Source of the DNA: Bacillota bacterium
Lineage (GTDB): Bacteria; Bacillota; Dehalobacteriia; Dehalobacteriales; Dehalobacteriaceae
Reading direction: 5' to 3'
DNA length: 64,000 bases
Assembly: GCA_050952445.1 (NCBI GenBank)
Contig: JBMNKX010000006.1
Span: 90,333 to 154,332, forward strand
Positions within the stretch are counted from its first letter, which is position 1; each line of letters begins with the position of its first letter. Both the position numbers and the translations under genes were made by a program. Below are positions 1,435 through 46,237 of this stretch, piece by piece. The notes below the pieces were generated by a model. The model made no database searches. It had not been told where the DNA came from and saw only the letters and a list, made by a program, of their open reading frames with translations.

Positions 1435-1965
1435 TTGAGAATATTGCTTCACTGTTGCTGTGGGCCTTGTTCAACTTTCCCTTTAAAGACATTAAATGAG
1501 GAAGGTCACAGCATATTTGGTTTTTTTTATAATCCGAATATTCATCCATTTCAGGAGTATCAAAAAAGACTGGATACTTTTCAGGAATTTGCGGCGAAGA
1601 CCCATCTTCAAACAATTATTAAGGACAACTATGATTTAGACAAATTTCTGAGAGAAATAGCCTTTAGGGAAGAAATTCGCTGCCGGTTTTGTTATTATTT
1701 AAGGCTTACTGAAACTGCAAAGCATGCAAAAAAAGGAAAATTTGACGGGTTTTCTACAACACTTTTAGTTAGTCCTTTTCAAAAACACAGCCTAATCAAG
1801 CAAATAGGTGAAGAAATTGGAGAAATGTATCAAATACGATTCTTATATCGTGATTTTCGCATGGGTTTTAAAGAAGGGGTAGAAATATCAAAAGAAATGC
1901 ATCTTTACCGTCAGACCTATTGCGGGTGTATTTATAGTGAAAGAGATAGATACCGGAAGGAGTAG
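1435..1965 (+). CDS. queH: Epoxyqueuosine reductase QueH (DUF208)
   Basis: N-terminal LLHCCCGPCS and C-terminal YCGCIYSE cysteine motifs are typical of QueH. queA and tgt are nearby. Confidence 0.85.
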   Translation: MRILLHCCCGPCSTFPLKTLNEEGHSIFGFFYNPNIHPFQEYQKRLDTFQEFAAKTHLQTIIKDNYDLDKFLREIAFREEIRCRFCYYLRLTETAKHAKKGKFDGFSTTLLVSPFQKHSLIKQIGEEIGEMYQIRFLYRDFRMGFKEGVEISKEMHLYRQTYCGCIYSERDRYRKE

Positions 1966-1970
1966 AAATC

Positions 1971-2192
1971 ATGGATTGGCAGGCAATAGGACGGATGTTA
2001 ATTGGTGTAGGCTTGCTACTTTTAATCATAGGTATTATTTTCTATGGATTAGGTAAATTATTTAATTTTGGTGGCTTTCCTGGTGATATTCTTTATAAGA
2101 AAGGAAATATTACATTTTATTTTCCTTTGGTAAGCTGTATCGTAATCAGTATAATATTAACTATTTTATTAAACCTAATATTTCGGAAATAG
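1971..2192 (+). CDS. Small membrane protein, DUF2905-like
   Basis: 73 aa with two hydrophobic helices and a central GGFPGDILYKKGNITFYFPL motif typical of DUF2905. Confidence 0.7.
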   Translation: MDWQAIGRMLIGVGLLLLIIGIIFYGLGKLFNFGGFPGDILYKKGNITFYFPLVSCIVISIILTILLNLIFRK

Positions 2193-2229
2193 CACTAAAA
2201 AATAGCTTTCTACAAACGAATCATATAAA

Positions 2230-2970
2230 GTGGACGGGCAGGTGGTAAGTTTGGGGGAATGGGAAAATTTACTTAAAAATGCTCGAGCAGGCCAAATTGC
2301 TGCCAGGAATGAAATTATAAAACGTTTCCAACCATTAGTAATCAAAACAGCTTCATCTTTAAGAAAAAAATACATTGATAGTAATAATGATGATGAGATT
2401 AGTATTGGCTTAATGGCTATTGATCAAGCTATTGATACTTATAACCCATGTGTGGGAACTAGCTTTATTGGTTATGCTGAAATAATTATCAAAAGACGGC
2501 TTATTGATTACTATCGCCGGGAACAGCGCCATAATAAGGCGATATTGTTTTCTAGTTTGGCAGGAACTGATAACGAGGATGGGATTCAAGTTATAAACCA
2601 AATTGAATATGATAATGCTGTTTCGGAGTATTTAAAAAAACAAGAGGAAATAGAAAGGAGAGAAGAAATCAGAAGATTTACCAAAAAACTGAAAGATTTT
2701 GGGATTACATTTAATGACTTAGTTATTGGATCCCCAAAACATGAGGATGCCAGGATCCGTGCCATTGAAGTAGCTAAATTAGTATCAACCCGGGCTGAAT
2801 TAAAGTCATATTTATTGACCAGAAAAGAGTTACCCTTAAAAAAATTAGAAAAGCAAGTTAAAGTTAGCAGAAAAACATTAGAGAGACAGAGAAAATATAT
2901 TATATCTGTTTGTTTGATTATTCTAGGAGAGTTTTATTATCTCAGAGAATATTTACATAAAGTATTATAG
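2230..2970 (+). CDS. sigI: RNA polymerase sigma factor SigI
   Basis: The N-terminal region resembles B. subtilis SigI (NEIIKRFQPLVIKTASS..KYID..DDEISIGLMAIDQAIDTY). It is followed by an RsgI-type anti-sigma gene. GTG start. Confidence 0.85.
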   Translation: MDGQVVSLGEWENLLKNARAGQIAARNEIIKRFQPLVIKTASSLRKKYIDSNNDDEISIGLMAIDQAIDTYNPCVGTSFIGYAEIIIKRRLIDYYRREQRHNKAILFSSLAGTDNEDGIQVINQIEYDNAVSEYLKKQEEIERREEIRRFTKKLKDFGITFNDLVIGSPKHEDARIRAIEVAKLVSTRAELKSYLLTRKELPLKKLEKQVKVSRKTLERQRKYIISVCLIILGEFYYLREYLHKVL

Positions 2971-2981
2971 AGGGTGAAGCA

Positions 2982-4229
2982 GTGAAAAAGAAAGCAATTG
3001 TTATGGAACGAAAGGGAAATAGAATAATTCTTTTGGCGGAAGACGGCAGTTTTATTATTCAGAAAGCTTCAATTCCTTATCCTGAAATAGGAGATGAAGT
3101 CGATATTATTGTCAAAAAAAATAGGTTACCAAATATTTCCACTGCTTTTATCGCCGTAGCATCAGTTTTATTAATAACATTTTTTTTAACTAATTTAATA
3201 CCCGAACAAAATAAAGTGATACCAGCCACAGGAACCGTCGTAAGATACGTTTCAATAGATATTAACCCTAGTATAGAATTGGGTGTTAATATGAAAAATA
3301 TTGTCGTATCAATAGAAGCCCTAAATAAGGATGGAACAGTTATAGTAAAAGAAATAAAAAATGCTCTTGATCAACCGGTTGATGTACTTCTAGAAAGAAT
3401 TGTGAATGAAGCTGTCGACAAAGGTTATTTAGCGGCAAGAAAAGAAAATAATATTCTTATTGATGTTTCAAGTGAAAATCCTCAAGATATAGAAGTTCTG
3501 AAAACAATAGAATTATTATCTGAAAAAGCTGCCGAGACTTTAAGTAAGAAGAACATAAAATCCAGCATTGGATGTGTTAAAACTGATTTAAAATTAAGAG
3601 AGAGTGCTCGGGAGCGAGGAATGTCCGCAGGAAAATATGCTCTGTTAAAAAAAGCAAAAGAGATAGATATCAATATTAACGAGCAAGATATGAAAACGTT
3701 GAGTATAGTAAAAGCTATTCAGAATGCCGGGGGAGATATTGAAGATATTGATAAGATAATAAGTAGTATAACGCAGGAAAAAAAAGAATCCCCTCAAAAG
3801 ATTCAGAATAATAAAAATATAACTATTGAAAAAAATAGTATGTTGGATAAAGAAAATCAGTTAATGAAAAACTCCAAAAATGTAGAAATAAATAATGAAC
3901 AAAAAAAGAATAAAGATAATACAAAAACAAATTCTAGTCCCTCAAAGCCTGAACAAACAAGCCAGGTAAAAAAAAATATAAAAGAGAACTCCCCAAATAA
4001 TAAAATAGAAACCGAAACAAATAAAGAAAAGAAAAAAAAAGACAAATTAGAGGTAAAGAAACATATGAAAGAAAAGGACAATGTAAAAGATAAGGGAAAA
4101 GATAACAAAGATAATAAAGATAAAAAAAATAGTAAAGATAATAAAGATAATAAAGATAAAAAAATAAATAATAGTACCCTGCCAGGAAATGACCTGGTTT
4201 TTTGTTTTATTAGAAAGTGTAAAGAATAA
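2982..4229 (+). CDS. rsgI: Anti-sigma-I factor RsgI with a lysine/asparagine-rich disordered C-terminal tail
   Basis: The RsgI N-terminal domain (MERKGNRIILLAEDGSFII) is followed by one TM helix. The extracytoplasmic part ends in a long K/N/D/E low-complexity region. Confidence 0.8.
   Translation: MKKKAIVMERKGNRIILLAEDGSFIIQKASIPYPEIGDEVDIIVKKNRLPNISTAFIAVASVLLITFFLTNLIPEQNKVIPATGTVVRYVSIDINPSIELGVNMKNIVVSIEALNKDGTVIVKEIKNALDQPVDVLLERIVNEAVDKGYLAARKENNILIDVSSENPQDIEVLKTIELLSEKAAETLSKKNIKSSIGCVKTDLKLRESARERGMSAGKYALLKKAKEIDININEQDMKTLSIVKAIQNAGGDIEDIDKIISSITQEKKESPQKIQNNKNITIEKNSMLDKENQLMKNSKNVEINNEQKKNKDNTKTNSSPSKPEQTSQVKKNIKENSPNNKIETETNKEKKKKDKLEVKKHMKEKDNVKDKGKDNKDNKDKKNSKDNKDNKDKKINNSTLPGNDLVFCFIRKCKE
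4101..4172 (+). repeat. Tandem 36-nt duplication inside the rsgI tail (DNKDNKDKKNSK / DNKDNKDKKINN)
   Basis: Two adjacent 36-nt units (4101-4136 and 4137-4172) match at about 31 of 36 positions by eye. Confidence 0.8.
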
Positions 4230-4575
4230 ACCAAAAGAAATGTTTCAACACAGTATTTTACCGCAAATCACAAAAAAATCTTCTCGATTTAAGAGCCAAA
4301 AATTTTGTGTTTGTTATGCGTCTTATACAATTAATCTAAAACTTCACTGTCTTATTCTGCAGAAAATCAAAAGAGCTTTTTCACTGCAGGAAATAATGGG
4401 AATTCGTCGAATTATAGTCAAAAACCTACCAGCAGGTGTAAAAGCAGGTGTAATAATGGATAGGCTTGTAAAGTTTTACTACTTAATGCACTAATTATCA
4501 TCATTTTACACTGCCTGTTCGAGCAGAGCAGAATAGAAACTTCGATTATCTAACAATTCATAAACGGCCGTTTTT

Positions 4576-5079
4576 CAGGTAATTTATTGTTCTTATTATC
4601 TGAGAGATTTTGCCACTAATTATATTATTGCCAAATTAAATTCTGGGGATATAATTAGTGTGTTTATCAGGCAGATCAAAATTTGATATTGATAATTAAC
4701 GGAAAACAGGATGAAATATTGTATTCCAATCCGTTATTGGCTGAACCGGAGTTACGTTGGTTTGAATGTTTTTAGTTTGGGTAATAATTATTATAGTATT
4801 ATAAGTTTATAACTCTAAATTATTAGTTGTAAACCGGATCAATATTGATCACAATCCCTATGGAATTGTGGGTAAGGAAAAATAGTTATTCAGCTCCGGC
4901 GGAAGCACTGGTAAGGTAAAATCTCTGACCTTTTCAGGATACGGTTATGGATATGGTATAGGATGAGCCAGTGGGAGGCTATAGGCATGGCGGAAAAAAG
5001 ACATAACTATGGGGAAATAATTGAGCATTATTATAATCAGGGTAAGAATGACGGTGCATTAACCATAGAAAACTTATAA
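4576..5079 (+). pseudogene. Decayed SpoIID/LytB-family gene remnant
   Basis: SpoIID-like segments are split over frames. They include GNNYYSIISL*, LLVVNRINIDHNPYGIVGKEK* and FSSGGSTGKVKSLTFSGYGYGYGIG, then a frameshift at 4963 into MSQWEAIGMAEKRHNYGEIIEHYYNQG. The region has several stops and is far shorter than an intact gene. Confidence 0.65.
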
Positions 5080-5119
5080 ATCCAGCAGCTTTAAACCAAT
5101 GAGCACAAGGAGCAAATTA

Positions 5120-6142
5120 ATGAAATTAAGTGATTTTAATTATTGTTTACCTGAGGAATTAATTGCCCAGCACCCTGTTGAACCGAGAGATGCTTCCCGT
5201 CTTTTAGTGATACATAGAAAAAGTGGTGAAATAGAACATAGGATATTTAGAGATATTATAGAATACTTATACCCTGGAGATGTATTGGTAATAAATGATA
5301 CTAAAGTACTGCCAGCCCGGATCTTTGCTACTAAGGAAACAGGTGCTGTAATAGAAGTAATTTTATTAAAACAGATTGATGCTTATAGGTGGGAAGTGCT
5401 GGTGCGGCCGGGAAAAAAAGCAAAAATTGGTGCTAAATTAATATTTTTGCCTGGTGAGTTAGAGGCAGATATAATTGAACAGACACCAGAAGGGGGGAGA
5501 ATTTTAGAGTTTAAATATCGGGGAGATTTTTATGCAATTTTGGATCAAGTTGGCAATATACCACTTCCGCCTTATATTAAAGAAAAGCTAACAGATCCTA
5601 ACAGGTATCAAACTGTTTACGCTGAAAAAAAGGGATCTGCTGCTGCACCTACAGCGGGATTGCATTTTACTTCTAGTTTACTGAAAAAAATTGAGGATCA
5701 GGGCATAGAAATAGCTCGGGTTTTACTGCACGTGGGATTAGGGACATTTAGACCAGTAAAGGTAGATAATATTGAGGAACATAGAATGCATTCTGAATAC
5801 TATGAAATTGACTCTGAGAATACAGATATAATTAATAGGGCTAAAAGAAGAGGAGCTCGTATTATTGGTGTCGGGACTACTTCTGCCAGAACTTTGGAGA
5901 CAGTTGCTTTGAGTGATGGGACGGTTGTTGCCGGTAAAGGTTGGACGGAAAAATTTATTTATCCGGGATATAAATTTAAAATTATTGATGCTCTGCTCAC
6001 TAATTTTCATTTACCCAAAAGTACATTGTTAATGCTGGTATCAGCTTTTGCCGACCGGGAATTAATTATGCACGCATATCAGGAGGCCGTAAAAAACAGA
6101 TATAGATTTTTTAGTTTTGGAGATGCAATGCTAATTATTTAG
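5120..6142 (+). CDS. queA: S-adenosylmethionine:tRNA ribosyltransferase-isomerase QueA
   Basis: The start was moved to ATG 5120 ([22 protein letters not shown] 7 nt upstream). Full-length QueA-like sequence. Confidence 0.93.
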
Positions 6143-21688: not shown

Positions 21689-21882
21689 AGAAGATAGCGC
21701 CCTACAATGTGCGTGATTAAGCCGATATGTTTTGAGCCAACACATTTTAAAAGGGAACTTGACTTTGATTGTAGCCTTGAAGCCTCTGAAACAGAGGAAC
21801 AAGAAAGCAATCAGGGAAGTACCCACCTGCCGGGGGCAGGTTCAAAACAACGGCAGCACGGCATCTGTGGGGTTATTCTTTA
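21689..21882 (+). ncRNA. ssrS: 6S RNA
   Basis: About 190 nt, non-coding, in the aspS-tcdA(yrvM) spacer where I recall B. subtilis 6S-1 (bsrA) lying. Long imperfect closing helix (AAGAUAGCGCCCUACAAUGUGCGUG...GCCG / CGGC..CACGGCAUCUGUGGGGUUAUUCUU), an apical stem (GAUUG..CCUCUGaaaCAGAGG..CAAUC) and a central bubble with hairpin CCUGCCgggGGCAGG. Confidence 0.7.
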
Positions 21883-23082: not shown

Positions 23083-23090
23083 GAAATCAG

Positions 23091-23172
23091 GATGTTGCTA
23101 CCATGCTACGTAAAATGGTTCCTACATATTTATGTAGTCAAACAAGTTATGTTGGGGTTTTGTAGAAGAAAA
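23091..23172 (+). repeat. Repeat family copy A (short, one-arm fragment)
   Basis: GATGTTGCTACCATGCTACGTAAAATGGTTCCTACATATTTATG..CAAACAAGTTATGTTGGGGTTTTGTAGAAGAAAAT is near-identical to the reverse complement of 32052-32144 and to 37968-38047. Confidence 0.85.
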
Positions 23173-31102: not shown

Positions 31103-32050
31103 TTGATATATACTCAACTAGGACAAACCCCTTTTAAAGTCTCCAGAATATGCTATGGGGCACTAACAATTGGTCCCCTTCAAGCAAATTTGAGTCTTTC
31201 TGAAGGGGCAGATGTAATTCGAACCGCCTTTGATTATGGAATAAATTTTATTGATACTGCTGAAATGTATTTAACTTATCCATACATAAAGGAAGCACTG
31301 AAAGGTATAAATTTTGATATTGTTATTGCTACCAAATCTTACGCTTACACTCAGGAATTAATGGCTAAAAGTTTAGAAAAAGCCCGTAAAGAGTTAGACC
31401 GGGATGTAATTGAAATATTTATGCTGCATGAGCAAGAGTCAGATCTAACACTAAAGGGGCACTGGGAAGCAATGGAGTTTTTGCTCAATGCCAAAGCTAA
31501 AGGCATTGTAGGAGCGGTTGGGATATCCACCCATGCTATAGAGGGTGTGACGGCTGCTTGCAAAATTAAAGAAATAGATGTTATTCACCCCATATTGAAT
31601 AAAAAAGGTATTGGAATCATTGATGGAGACATTAACAAAATGACAGAAGCCGTTCAACAGGCTTTCAAAGAGGGTAAGGGTATATATGGGATGAAAGCTA
31701 TCGGGGGAGGAAATCTAATAGGCAATGTTCAGCAAGCATTAGAATGGGCATTTCAATTTGAATGGGCACATTCCATAGCTATTGGGATGAAAACTCCTGC
31801 TGAAGTTCATGTTAATGTTGCCTGGCTTTTAGGTGAACAACCTGATGAGGAAATATTAAGACAGGCAAAGCGTGAAAAAAGAAAACTTCATATTGAAGAT
31901 TGGTGCTCCGGTTGTGGTGCATGTGTTCAGGGCTGCCCTCAAAAAGCCTTAAAAATTGTAAACAAAAAAGCAACGGTGGATATAGAAAATTGTGTTCTTT
32001 GTGGCTATTGCGGTGCTTACTGCCCTGATTTTTGTATTAAGGTTATATAA
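31103..32050 (+). CDS. Aldo/keto reductase fused to a C-terminal 2x[4Fe-4S] ferredoxin domain
   Basis: AKR N-terminus (RICYGALTIG, INFIDTAEMY) and C-terminal CSGCGACVQGCP...CVLCGYCGAYCP. TTG start. Confidence 0.8.
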   Translation: MIYTQLGQTPFKVSRICYGALTIGPLQANLSLSEGADVIRTAFDYGINFIDTAEMYLTYPYIKEALKGINFDIVIATKSYAYTQELMAKSLEKARKELDRDVIEIFMLHEQESDLTLKGHWEAMEFLLNAKAKGIVGAVGISTHAIEGVTAACKIKEIDVIHPILNKKGIGIIDGDINKMTEAVQQAFKEGKGIYGMKAIGGGNLIGNVQQALEWAFQFEWAHSIAIGMKTPAEVHVNVAWLLGEQPDEEILRQAKREKRKLHIEDWCSGCGACVQGCPQKALKIVNKKATVDIENCVLCGYCGAYCPDFCIKVI

Positions 32051-32051
32051 A

Positions 32052-32311
32052 TGATTCTCCTGCGAAAACCCCAACATAACTTGTTTGGTTGCATAAATAT
32101 GTAGGAACCGTTTTACGTAGCATGGTAGCAACACCCTGCGCAGGCGAACGACGAAAGGGGGCGAGCCACATGGACGGGGTGAGAGGACCATTGAACATGG
32201 ACGTGAATTGTCCCGGTACTCCTTTCGTTGTGATACAAGCAGATGGTGTTGTCCATGCGAAGTATGGTGACGAATATTTATGCATTCAAACTATTTTTCC
32301 CAGGGGAATCA
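32052..32311 (-). mobile_element. Repeat family copy B: full-length ~260-bp foldback, MITE-like element
   Basis: TIRs TGATTCTCCTGCGAAAA (32052-68) and the reverse complement of 32295-32311, TGATTCCCCTGGGAAAA, match at 15/17. TAAA flanks both sides (32048-51, 32312-15). Subterminal IR TGCATAAATAT (32090-100) pairs with 32274-84. No credible ORF. Confidence 0.7.
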
Positions 32312-32375
32312 TAAATTGATTTTGTAAAACGATGATATTTTGTTAATAATTTTATAAAAATAGGAGAAGTTAAAT

Positions 32376-37930: not shown

Positions 37931-37934
37931 TTTT

Positions 37935-38068
37935 GGGGCTCGCCTCCTTTCCTCGTTCGCCTCGCAGGGTGTTGATACCATGCTACGTAAATAGTTTTAG
38001 ATATTTATGCTCCAAACAAGCTATGTTGGGGTTTTCACAGAAGAATTGCAGGAGAATTCAGGAGAATT
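37935..38068 (+). repeat. Repeat family copy C (one-arm fragment with triplicated terminal 10-11-mer)
   Basis: GGGGCTCGCCTCCTTTCCTCGTTCGCCTCGCAGGGTGTTGATACCATGCTACGTAAA...ATGTTGGGGTTTTCACAGAAGAATT matches the reverse complement of 32052-32168. Its end carries CAGAAGAATT / GCAGGAGAATT / CAGGAGAATT in tandem (38038-38068). Confidence 0.85.
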
Positions 38069-45990: not shown

Positions 45991-46127
45991 TAATTAACTA
46001 AAATTGTAATATTCTTGAGAAAATTTTTCAAATGGTGCAGGAATTTACCAAAATAAAGAGAATACAAAATAAAAAAGAATACTTGTTCAGAAATAAAATT
46101 AATGTATTAGTTTTTAAATAATAAATC

Positions 46128-46237
46128 AAGTAATTGGTAAACTACTCGAAAGGGTAGGGCACAAAGCTATGGGTCTTCGGTTGTATTAACCATGATTGCC
46201 AGGCTGCATTAGAAAATTCTGATGCAGTTTTTTTGTT
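46128..46237 (+). promoter_or_regulatory. c-di-GMP-I (GEMM-I) riboswitch with intrinsic terminator
   Basis: GGUAAACUACUCGAAAGGGUAGGGCACAAAGCUAUGGGUC matches the GEMM-I core, including the GNRA loop GAAA (compare Vc2 GGCAAACCAUUCGAAAGAGUGGGACGCAAAGCCUCCGG). Terminator CTGCATTAG/CTGATGCAG (46204-27) is followed by a T7 tract. Confidence 0.75.

Follow-up and report, generated by a model that had tools for sequence, protein, structure and literature searches.

What fills the 325-nt spacer between a gene for an AKR-ferredoxin fusion and ruvX in an uncultured member of the Dehalobacteriaceae, and how did it come to lie there? The stretch analysed, hereafter the window, comprises 64,000 nucleotides of a Bacillota bacterium (assembly GCA_050952445.1, contig JBMNKX010000006.1, positions 90,333 to 154,332 of the forward strand). 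An initial annotation, made from the letters alone, had read most of the spacer as a foldback resembling a miniature inverted-repeat transposable element (MITE), and comparison with other loci supports that reading: the ends are conserved, target duplications flank copies at multiple loci, deletion derivatives exist and an insertion sequence (IS) carries identical ends. The segment is thus very probably a MITE, that is, a non-autonomous cut-and-paste DNA transposon of about 270 bp, to which we assign a probability of roughly 0.88.

The features on which the proposal had been built, namely the terminal inverted repeats, the subterminal 11-bp pair, the flanking TAAA and the AKR stop codon within its left copy, are all present in the window (Table 1). 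Taken alone, the terminal-repeat pair is weakly beyond chance, with two matches in the window against 0.38 expected and with two reached in 7 of 100 shuffles. Unlike this weak signal, the segment as a whole is clearly non-random: its + strand folds into one long rod of -104.9 kcal/mol (z = -5.95), a stability equalled by none of 200 shuffles, and the - strand reaches -79.6 kcal/mol (z = -3.2). Aligned with six other full-length copies, homology begins and stops exactly at 32052 and 32311, and the window copy lacks 11 nt of a right-arm internal loop that all other copies retain. As expected of a MITE, the element is short (260-272 bp among the copies) and carries no transposase gene, its internal open reading frames (ORFs) being spurious; the absence of a transposase from the window, already remarked upon initially, holds in that no homologue of the partner transposase described below was found among the window sequences.

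Table 1. Coordinates of the element, its parts, its relatives and the partner insertion sequence. Positions without a locus handle refer to the window; handles beginning with L denote other loci.
Feature	Position	Strand	Target duplication	Remarks
Full-length copy (probable MITE), 260 bp, non-coding	32052..32311	+	TAAA / TAAA	Alignment with six other full copies; rod fold
Left terminal inverted repeat, 17 bp	32052..32068	+		TGATTCTCCTGCGAAAA
Right terminal inverted repeat	32295..32311	-		Reverse complement TGATTCCCCTGGGAAAA; 15/17 match to left repeat
Subterminal 11-bp pair	32090-32100 and 32274-32284			TGCATAAATAT / ATATTTATGCA; perfect pairing
Left target-site duplication copy	32048..32051		TAAA	Contains AKR stop codon TAA (32048-32050)
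Right target-site duplication copy	32312..32315		TAAA
G+C-rich core	32113..32265	+		50-55% G+C, flanks 29-44%; aligns full length with RF01731
First AUGGAC hexaloop	32170..32175	+		Closed by C-G pair
Second AUGGAC hexaloop	32197..32202	+		Closed by C-G pair
Spurious 65-aa ORF (P0001)	32122..32319	+		Gene-caller prediction; not a real gene
Decayed fragment, left arm only	23088..23170	-		90% identical to 32055-32138
Decayed fragment, left arm up to apex	37934..38046	-		86% identical to 32054-32170
Full copy	L087 9931-10201		TCTA / TCTA
Full copy	L099 1821-2088		TGTGT / TGTGT
Full copy	L101 359-630		TTCA / TTCA
Full copy	L100 2462-2731		ACGGT / ACGGT
Full copy	L090 5264-5534			Flanks TGCT / CGCT, imperfect
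Full copy	L232 899-1169	-	TAAA / TAAA
Deletion derivative, 152 bp	L125		TTGT
Deletion derivative, 73 bp	L173
Deletion derivative, 76 bp	L185
Deletion derivative, 58 bp	L164		AAAT
Deletion derivative, 49 bp	L226		TATT
MITE with same ends and different interior, 122 bp	L172 322-443		TATA
Insertion sequence, 1950 bp	L188 2612-4561		TATA / TATA	One 550-aa ORF
Loci with AKR in the array	L007, L009, L010, L012, L014, L016, L021, L024, L025, L026, L032

The strongest test of a mobile element is whether it recurs elsewhere with the same ends, and it does. Searching a protein database with the spurious 65-aa ORF and with one ORF of the - strand, and retrieving the encoding contigs, yielded six further full-length copies of 268-272 bp, 83-95% identical and falling into two subfamilies on sequence comparison, so that with the window copy seven distinct full-length loci and a number of short derivatives answer the earlier call for further copies. 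These loci are unrelated to each other, lying between convergent, divergent and tandem genes, and their flanks share no similarity beyond duplications of 4-5 bp when aligned. Since the contigs bearing full copies have a G+C content of either 37-40% or 48-51%, at least two organisms must be involved. In every copy similarity begins at TGATTCYCCTGCGAAAA, the consensus 17-bp terminal repeat of the family, and stops at TTTTCGCAGGGGAATCA (TGATTC...GAATCA), which bears out the expectation that the ends would be conserved; each of the seven full copies has the repeat at either end, and so have the derivatives. Of the seven full copies, six stand between perfect direct repeats of 4-5 bp in the context A-N4(5)-T. 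Perfect 4-bp duplications are likewise seen at four shorter elements with the same ends (three deletion derivatives and one MITE of different interior) and at the insertion sequence of L188, and insertion always took place at sites of this form. From sequence, the duplication can be read as 4-5 bp with a preference for flanking A...T or, equally, as 6-7 bp with element ends G...C, two readings that sequence alone cannot separate.

The family is a small one, as a HMMER profile search of 1.84 billion representative proteins gave about 25 short ORF clusters of the element type. The two top long matches of that search, P0147 and P0173, proved to be repetitive tandem Ig-like proteins and were set aside as false positives arising from summed weak repeats, a caution for ORF-based searches aimed at DNA elements. 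The window organism itself is present in several recent JGI metagenomes, in which gene callers predicted a 65-aa "hypothetical protein" inside the element. A left-arm 20-mer, ACCCCAACATARCTTGTTTG, was absent from the genome and metagenome contig collections, the pattern being too narrow and the source samples lying outside these collections. Blastn of the element against plasmids and phages gave no match, the element was absent from all 80 AlaS-anchored loci of relatives in GTDB genomes, where the closest AlaS among 185,579 species genomes is 63% identical (uncultured Clostridia/Bacillota), and a terminal-repeat scan of viral contigs returned five single matches, with weak nhmmer scores (E >= 0.002) at the seeded 17-mer in three contigs.

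Two neighbourhoods of the element may be recorded in their own right. Just downstream of the full-length copy at L101 (352-635), at 1575-5769, are the genes for a tautomerase and for a BREX defence cluster comprising BrxA, BrxB and one large protein. Compared with L090 (2835-5133), the metagenome contig L091 carries an inverted junction (2124-2131) at which a neighbouring segment of 2.1 kb is reversed and DUF6125 is lost, either by real inversion or by chimeric assembly; an event mediated by the element was rejected, as the breakpoint lies 130 nt upstream of the MITE copy and not at an element end.

Shortened forms with both ends intact point in the same direction. Scanned for the 17-bp repeat, metagenome contigs gave at least 120 loci, mostly chance single matches, which were filtered by nhmmer and a search for paired repeats; among the matches listed, the true relatives came from the LSQX01, LDZU01 and LDZT01 assemblies. 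Five deletion derivatives of 49-152 bp keep both ends, and a further MITE (L172) combines the same ends with a wholly different interior, from which it follows that the same transposase ends have mobilised more than one type of interior. The latter element sits 176 nt upstream of a fluoride riboswitch (619-683, 35.3 bits).

In the window, two shorter copies had been noticed from the outset; both exist, as decayed fragments on the - strand which retain the left arm only and carry degenerate terminal repeats. One lies between a CsoR-like gene and a thioredoxin gene, the other between a DUF4911 gene and a PBP gene, and at the outer end of the second three tandem partial units of the terminal-repeat core, AATTCTCCTG, AATTCTCCTGC and AATTCTTCTGTG, occupy 38036-38068, which suggests slippage at the element end. 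These one-armed fragments, together with a third at L167 1546-1628, all retain the left arm and break off near the apex, and in both window fragments the truncated end adjoins the stop codon of the upstream gene; they may reflect deletion driven by the hairpin.

A non-autonomous transposon calls for a transposase that recognises its ends, and a search for an autonomous element with the same ends, envisaged from the beginning, led to the 1950-bp insertion sequence at L188, which has TGATTCYCCTGCGAAAA ends and a 4-bp TATA duplication. Its termini read TGATTCCCCTGCGAAAAG... and ...TTTTTGCAGTAGAATCA, with a TGATTCCCCTGCGAAAA end, and the same 17-mer thus terminates the full copies, the derivatives and this insertion sequence. 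The 550-aa ORF holds the Pfam domains DUF772 (4.2e-07) and DDE_Tnp_1_6 (3e-16), both above their cut-offs, the domain architecture of IS1182, and IS1182 is also its best NCBIfam family (E = 1.3e-40, 139.7 bits). As this score falls short of the 270 bits set as cut-off for the transpos_IS1182 equivalog, the transposase is a divergent member of IS1182 or belongs to a sister lineage. Further copies of the right end occur at other sites (L171 and L216), and a copy of the insertion sequence 87% identical to that at L188 was found at L228, a second autonomous element with these ends; there the end upstream of the transposase gene, TGATTCCACTGCAAAAACCCCATAAAATAAC, resembles the MITE left end, TGATTCTCCTGCGAAAACCCCAACATAAC, over about 30 nt. 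Transposases of the L188 type are common in Firmicutes, for example in Heliomicrobium, Thermacetogenium, Neomoorella and Desulfitobacterium, and against plasmids the L188 protein gave distant archaeal "transposase" matches only. Judging from the identical ends, the duplication length and the target context, the L188-type lineage is likely the mobiliser of the MITE.

At the insertion site, comparison with relatives separates what moved from what did not. The AKR-ferredoxin ORF (31103-32050, with a fused 4Fe-4S ferredoxin domain) lies upstream of ruvX. Among the related Clostridia loci, 19 have both ireB and ruvX, and in 11 of these AKR stands between the two. The fusion is a conserved member of an alaS-ireB-AKR-ruvX-DUF1292 array in many Clostridia-type metagenome-assembled genomes, usually 5-50 nt upstream of ruvX. 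It is therefore outside the insertion and only the MITE was inserted; the initial view that the AKR gene, together with the element, interrupts the array has to be abandoned. Spacers between AKR and ruvX in the relatives measure 5-106 nt, with one of 223 nt in the Peptococcaceae bacterium BICA1-8 (L010 14004-14228) that has no similarity to the element, against 325 nt in the window. Removal of the element and one TAAA leaves 61 nt, and the length of the spacer is accordingly explained by a single MITE insertion.

In the mechanism that these data suggest, a DDE transposase provided in trans by an IS1182-like insertion sequence with the same ends would bind and cut at the 17-bp repeats, and staggered cleavage of the target would produce the duplication of 4 bp, sometimes 5 bp. 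The target in the window was A-TAAA-T at the AKR stop codon, in an empty allele that would read GGTTATATAAATTGATTTTG; insertion lengthened the spacer from about 61 nt to 325 nt, and since the duplication regenerated the stop codon, AKR is unchanged. The window copy is probably now fixed and immobile. If co-transcribed with its neighbours, here AKR and ruvX, the element would form a long RNA hairpin, which could affect the processing or stability of the mRNA or bind a dimeric protein via its two identical loops. Such an RNA role of the interior is secondary to, and less certain than, the identity as a MITE.

The interior deserves attention, as its G+C-rich core aligns on the + strand with the TwoAYGGAY RNA family, RF01731, from end to end of the model (positions 1-168), in all six copies tested at permissive thresholds. 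The scores are 20.3 bits for the window copy and 27.3-36.9 bits for the others, with a best E of 0.0075, and no copy tested attains the gathering score of 43 bits. Both hexaloops read C-AUGGAY-G in all copies, in agreement with the two AYGGAY loops of TwoAYGGAY, and the consensus structure, a single rod, has 88 predicted pairs (96% of cells paired), in line with the long P1 stem closing two hairpins that is noted in the original description of the motif (Weinberg et al. 2010, PMC2864571). The core is TwoAYGGAY-like, by its descriptive features and not by its score. The initial statement that the sequence belongs to no named repeat or RNA family accordingly stands insofar as no Rfam family reaches its gathering score within the element, so that no significant hit explains the segment as a known RNA gene, and has to be amended for the sub-threshold match of the core to TwoAYGGAY. 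A scan of the whole window at E <= 1 added nothing. The sole Rfam families that reach the gathering score in the window are 6S RNA (21696-21877, +, 98.4 bits) and the c-di-GMP-I-GGC riboswitch (46127-46212, +, 61.5 bits).

Several properties of the fold differ between the strands. In each of the seven copies the + strand gives the more stable fold, by 6-25 kcal/mol, and G·U occurs in 19 stem columns versus A·C in 7 (p of about 0.01, by a simple binomial that ignores relatedness). A strain variant of the window organism, L006, differs from the window copy mostly by U-to-C changes which turn G·U into G-C. The most variable parts are unpaired internal loops of 14 nt, with 53-69% identity versus about 90% elsewhere. 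Three compensatory pairs appear in the consensus, a number equalled or bettered in 77-209 of 500 shuffles, and covariation is not significant with six sequences. Together these observations are suggestive, not proof, of a constraint on the fold of the + strand RNA (or single strand). Derivatives without the core exist, and the core is therefore not required for the ends to persist.

Could the RNA be the real object of selection, with the MITE ends as a mere vehicle? In this alternative the segment is primarily a functional RNA of the TwoAYGGAY class, a small RNA or a protein-binding one, and the full-length + strand matches in all copies tested, the retention of two identical loops, the strand asymmetry in folding energy and in G·U versus A·C, and the stronger conservation of paired regions than of loops all fit it, as do distant relatives of the spurious ORF which, from protein sequence only, appear to have changed M to T at both loops, giving ACGGAC in agreement with AYGGAY. 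The scores below the gathering threshold and the covariation mentioned above speak against it, the copies are young enough for their conservation to reflect recent spread, derivatives devoid of the core sit at their own sites with duplications, and the gene neighbourhood is inconsistent among copies; we hold this alternative to be possible and rather doubtful. A related proposal unites both sides, the TwoAYGGAY-like domain being a functional RNA cargo (a decoy, a platform for a dimeric protein or an mRNA-processing module) spread by an IS1182-type MITE, with the motif generally the core of mobile foldback elements and not a conventional small RNA; we regard this proposal as unlikely. A coding function fares far worse. 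The 65-79-aa ORF annotated as hypothetical is open in all copies, and the variable columns are somewhat skewed to one codon phase (9, 15 and 22 of 60 each; chi-square p of about 0.06), but five of the six reading frames stay open through the core, the last third of the ORF is thrown out of frame by a 1-nt insertion in the L101/L102 copy, the C-termini vary from copy to copy and extend across the terminal repeat into flanking DNA, the nearest AGGA is 15 nt away from the ATG with no ribosome-binding site at normal spacing, and the sole database relatives are other copies of the element. On the open frames, the frameshift, the differing C-termini and the spacing the coding hypothesis was rejected, and there is next to no chance that the element encodes a small protein; the "hypothetical proteins" of 65-79 aa called inside its copies are artefacts.

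The position of the element directly after a stop codon and between two co-oriented genes might also recall a fixed hairpin of the AKR-ruvX operon, regulating in cis or resembling a terminator, of which the other copies arose by segmental duplication. These copies lie in unrelated contexts with flanks dissimilar beyond the 4-5-bp duplications, relatives have the same operon without the element, and no T-tract follows the stem, so that the multi-locus alignment contradicts this explanation and renders it very improbable. Other classes of repeats, namely REP/BIME/REPIN sequences with a RAYT, palindromes derived from IS200/IS605 or fragments of retroelements, share the foldback shape with the element, and its left-arm-only fragments superficially resemble end-biased truncation. 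Terminal inverted repeats with target duplications are foreign to those classes; here both are found and match an insertion sequence of the DDE type, and no reverse transcriptase or Y1 transposase is associated; contradicted by this anatomy, such an origin has hardly any probability left.

Some observations count against the interpretation as a MITE mobilised by the IS1182-like lineage. A transposase with these ends was found neither in the window nor in the genome and samples to which it belongs, the matching insertion sequences coming from other metagenomes (LDZU01, LDZT01 and JGI 3300038387, 3300040964 and 3300035382); the copy at L228 has no clean duplication, and the MITE does not resemble the insertion sequence in its interior, so that it cannot have arisen by simple deletion from the lineage found. 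An RNA role of the interior, as part of the same interpretation, is weakened by the non-significant covariation, the Rfam scores below the gathering score and the core-less derivatives. The empty sites that were to be looked for were not found, as no empty allele of the window insertion occurs among the retrieved loci and all contigs of the same species carry the element, including the strain variant L006, 95% identical. The evidence for mobility is therefore comparative and not based on polymorphism.

Among known systems, bacterial MITEs such as Correia in Neisseria, RUP in Streptococcus pneumoniae, ERIC/IRU in enterobacteria and bcr1 in the Bacillus cereus group offer the closest comparison. 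Like them, the element is short and devoid of a transposase, has terminal inverted repeats, a short target duplication and many intergenic copies as well as decayed and deleted derivatives, and can fold as a whole into one hairpin when transcribed. It differs from them by its ends, TGATTCYCCTGCGAAAA, its larger size of about 270 bp, the 4-5-bp duplication at A-N4(5)-T, the IS1182-like partner, an interior which is a G+C-rich TwoAYGGAY-like domain and not two joined ends of an insertion sequence, and its distribution, so far confined to contigs of uncultured Bacillota type in a few metagenomes. With the IS1182-like insertion sequences at L188 and L228 it shares the 17-bp ends and the 4-bp duplication, and neither a transposase nor any interior similarity. 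We thus regard it as a well-supported MITE belonging to an IS1182-like lineage; the family is new, the kind familiar, and the host an uncultured lineage of Bacillota. For annotation, this means that the 65-79-aa "hypothetical proteins" inside such elements are to be treated as artefacts, and for the biology of mobile elements it adds a MITE family of uncultured anaerobic Bacillota tied to an IS1182-like transposase and with a clean target rule, A-N4/5-T.

The link to TwoAYGGAY is the one point of wider interest: a mobile element might account for this orphan RNA motif, whose function, to our knowledge, has remained unknown since 2010 and which is not known to form part of any transposable element. 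The TwoAYGGAY RNA, which occurs in Clostridia and is multicopy in at least one seed genome, that of Psychromonas ingrahamii, resembles the core in its long closing stem, the two hairpins with AYGGAY loops closed by C-G and similar junction nucleotides (GCR-AG ... GG-U), and it is set apart by the 20-37 bits which the element copies score against the gathering value of 43. In the seed alignment (TwoAYGGAY.sto, supplement of PMC2864571), P. ingrahamii NC_008709 contributes at least five copies that lie within larger repeated sequence, and in that genome the Rfam family, as represented there, behaves like a dispersed repeat; none of four terminal-repeat strings searched occurs in the stored part of that alignment. 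If TwoAYGGAY indeed is, or is carried by, a foldback transposon, the length of its stem and its occurrence in scattered multiple copies would find a concrete and testable explanation in the same kind of element as that which lies between AKR and ruvX.

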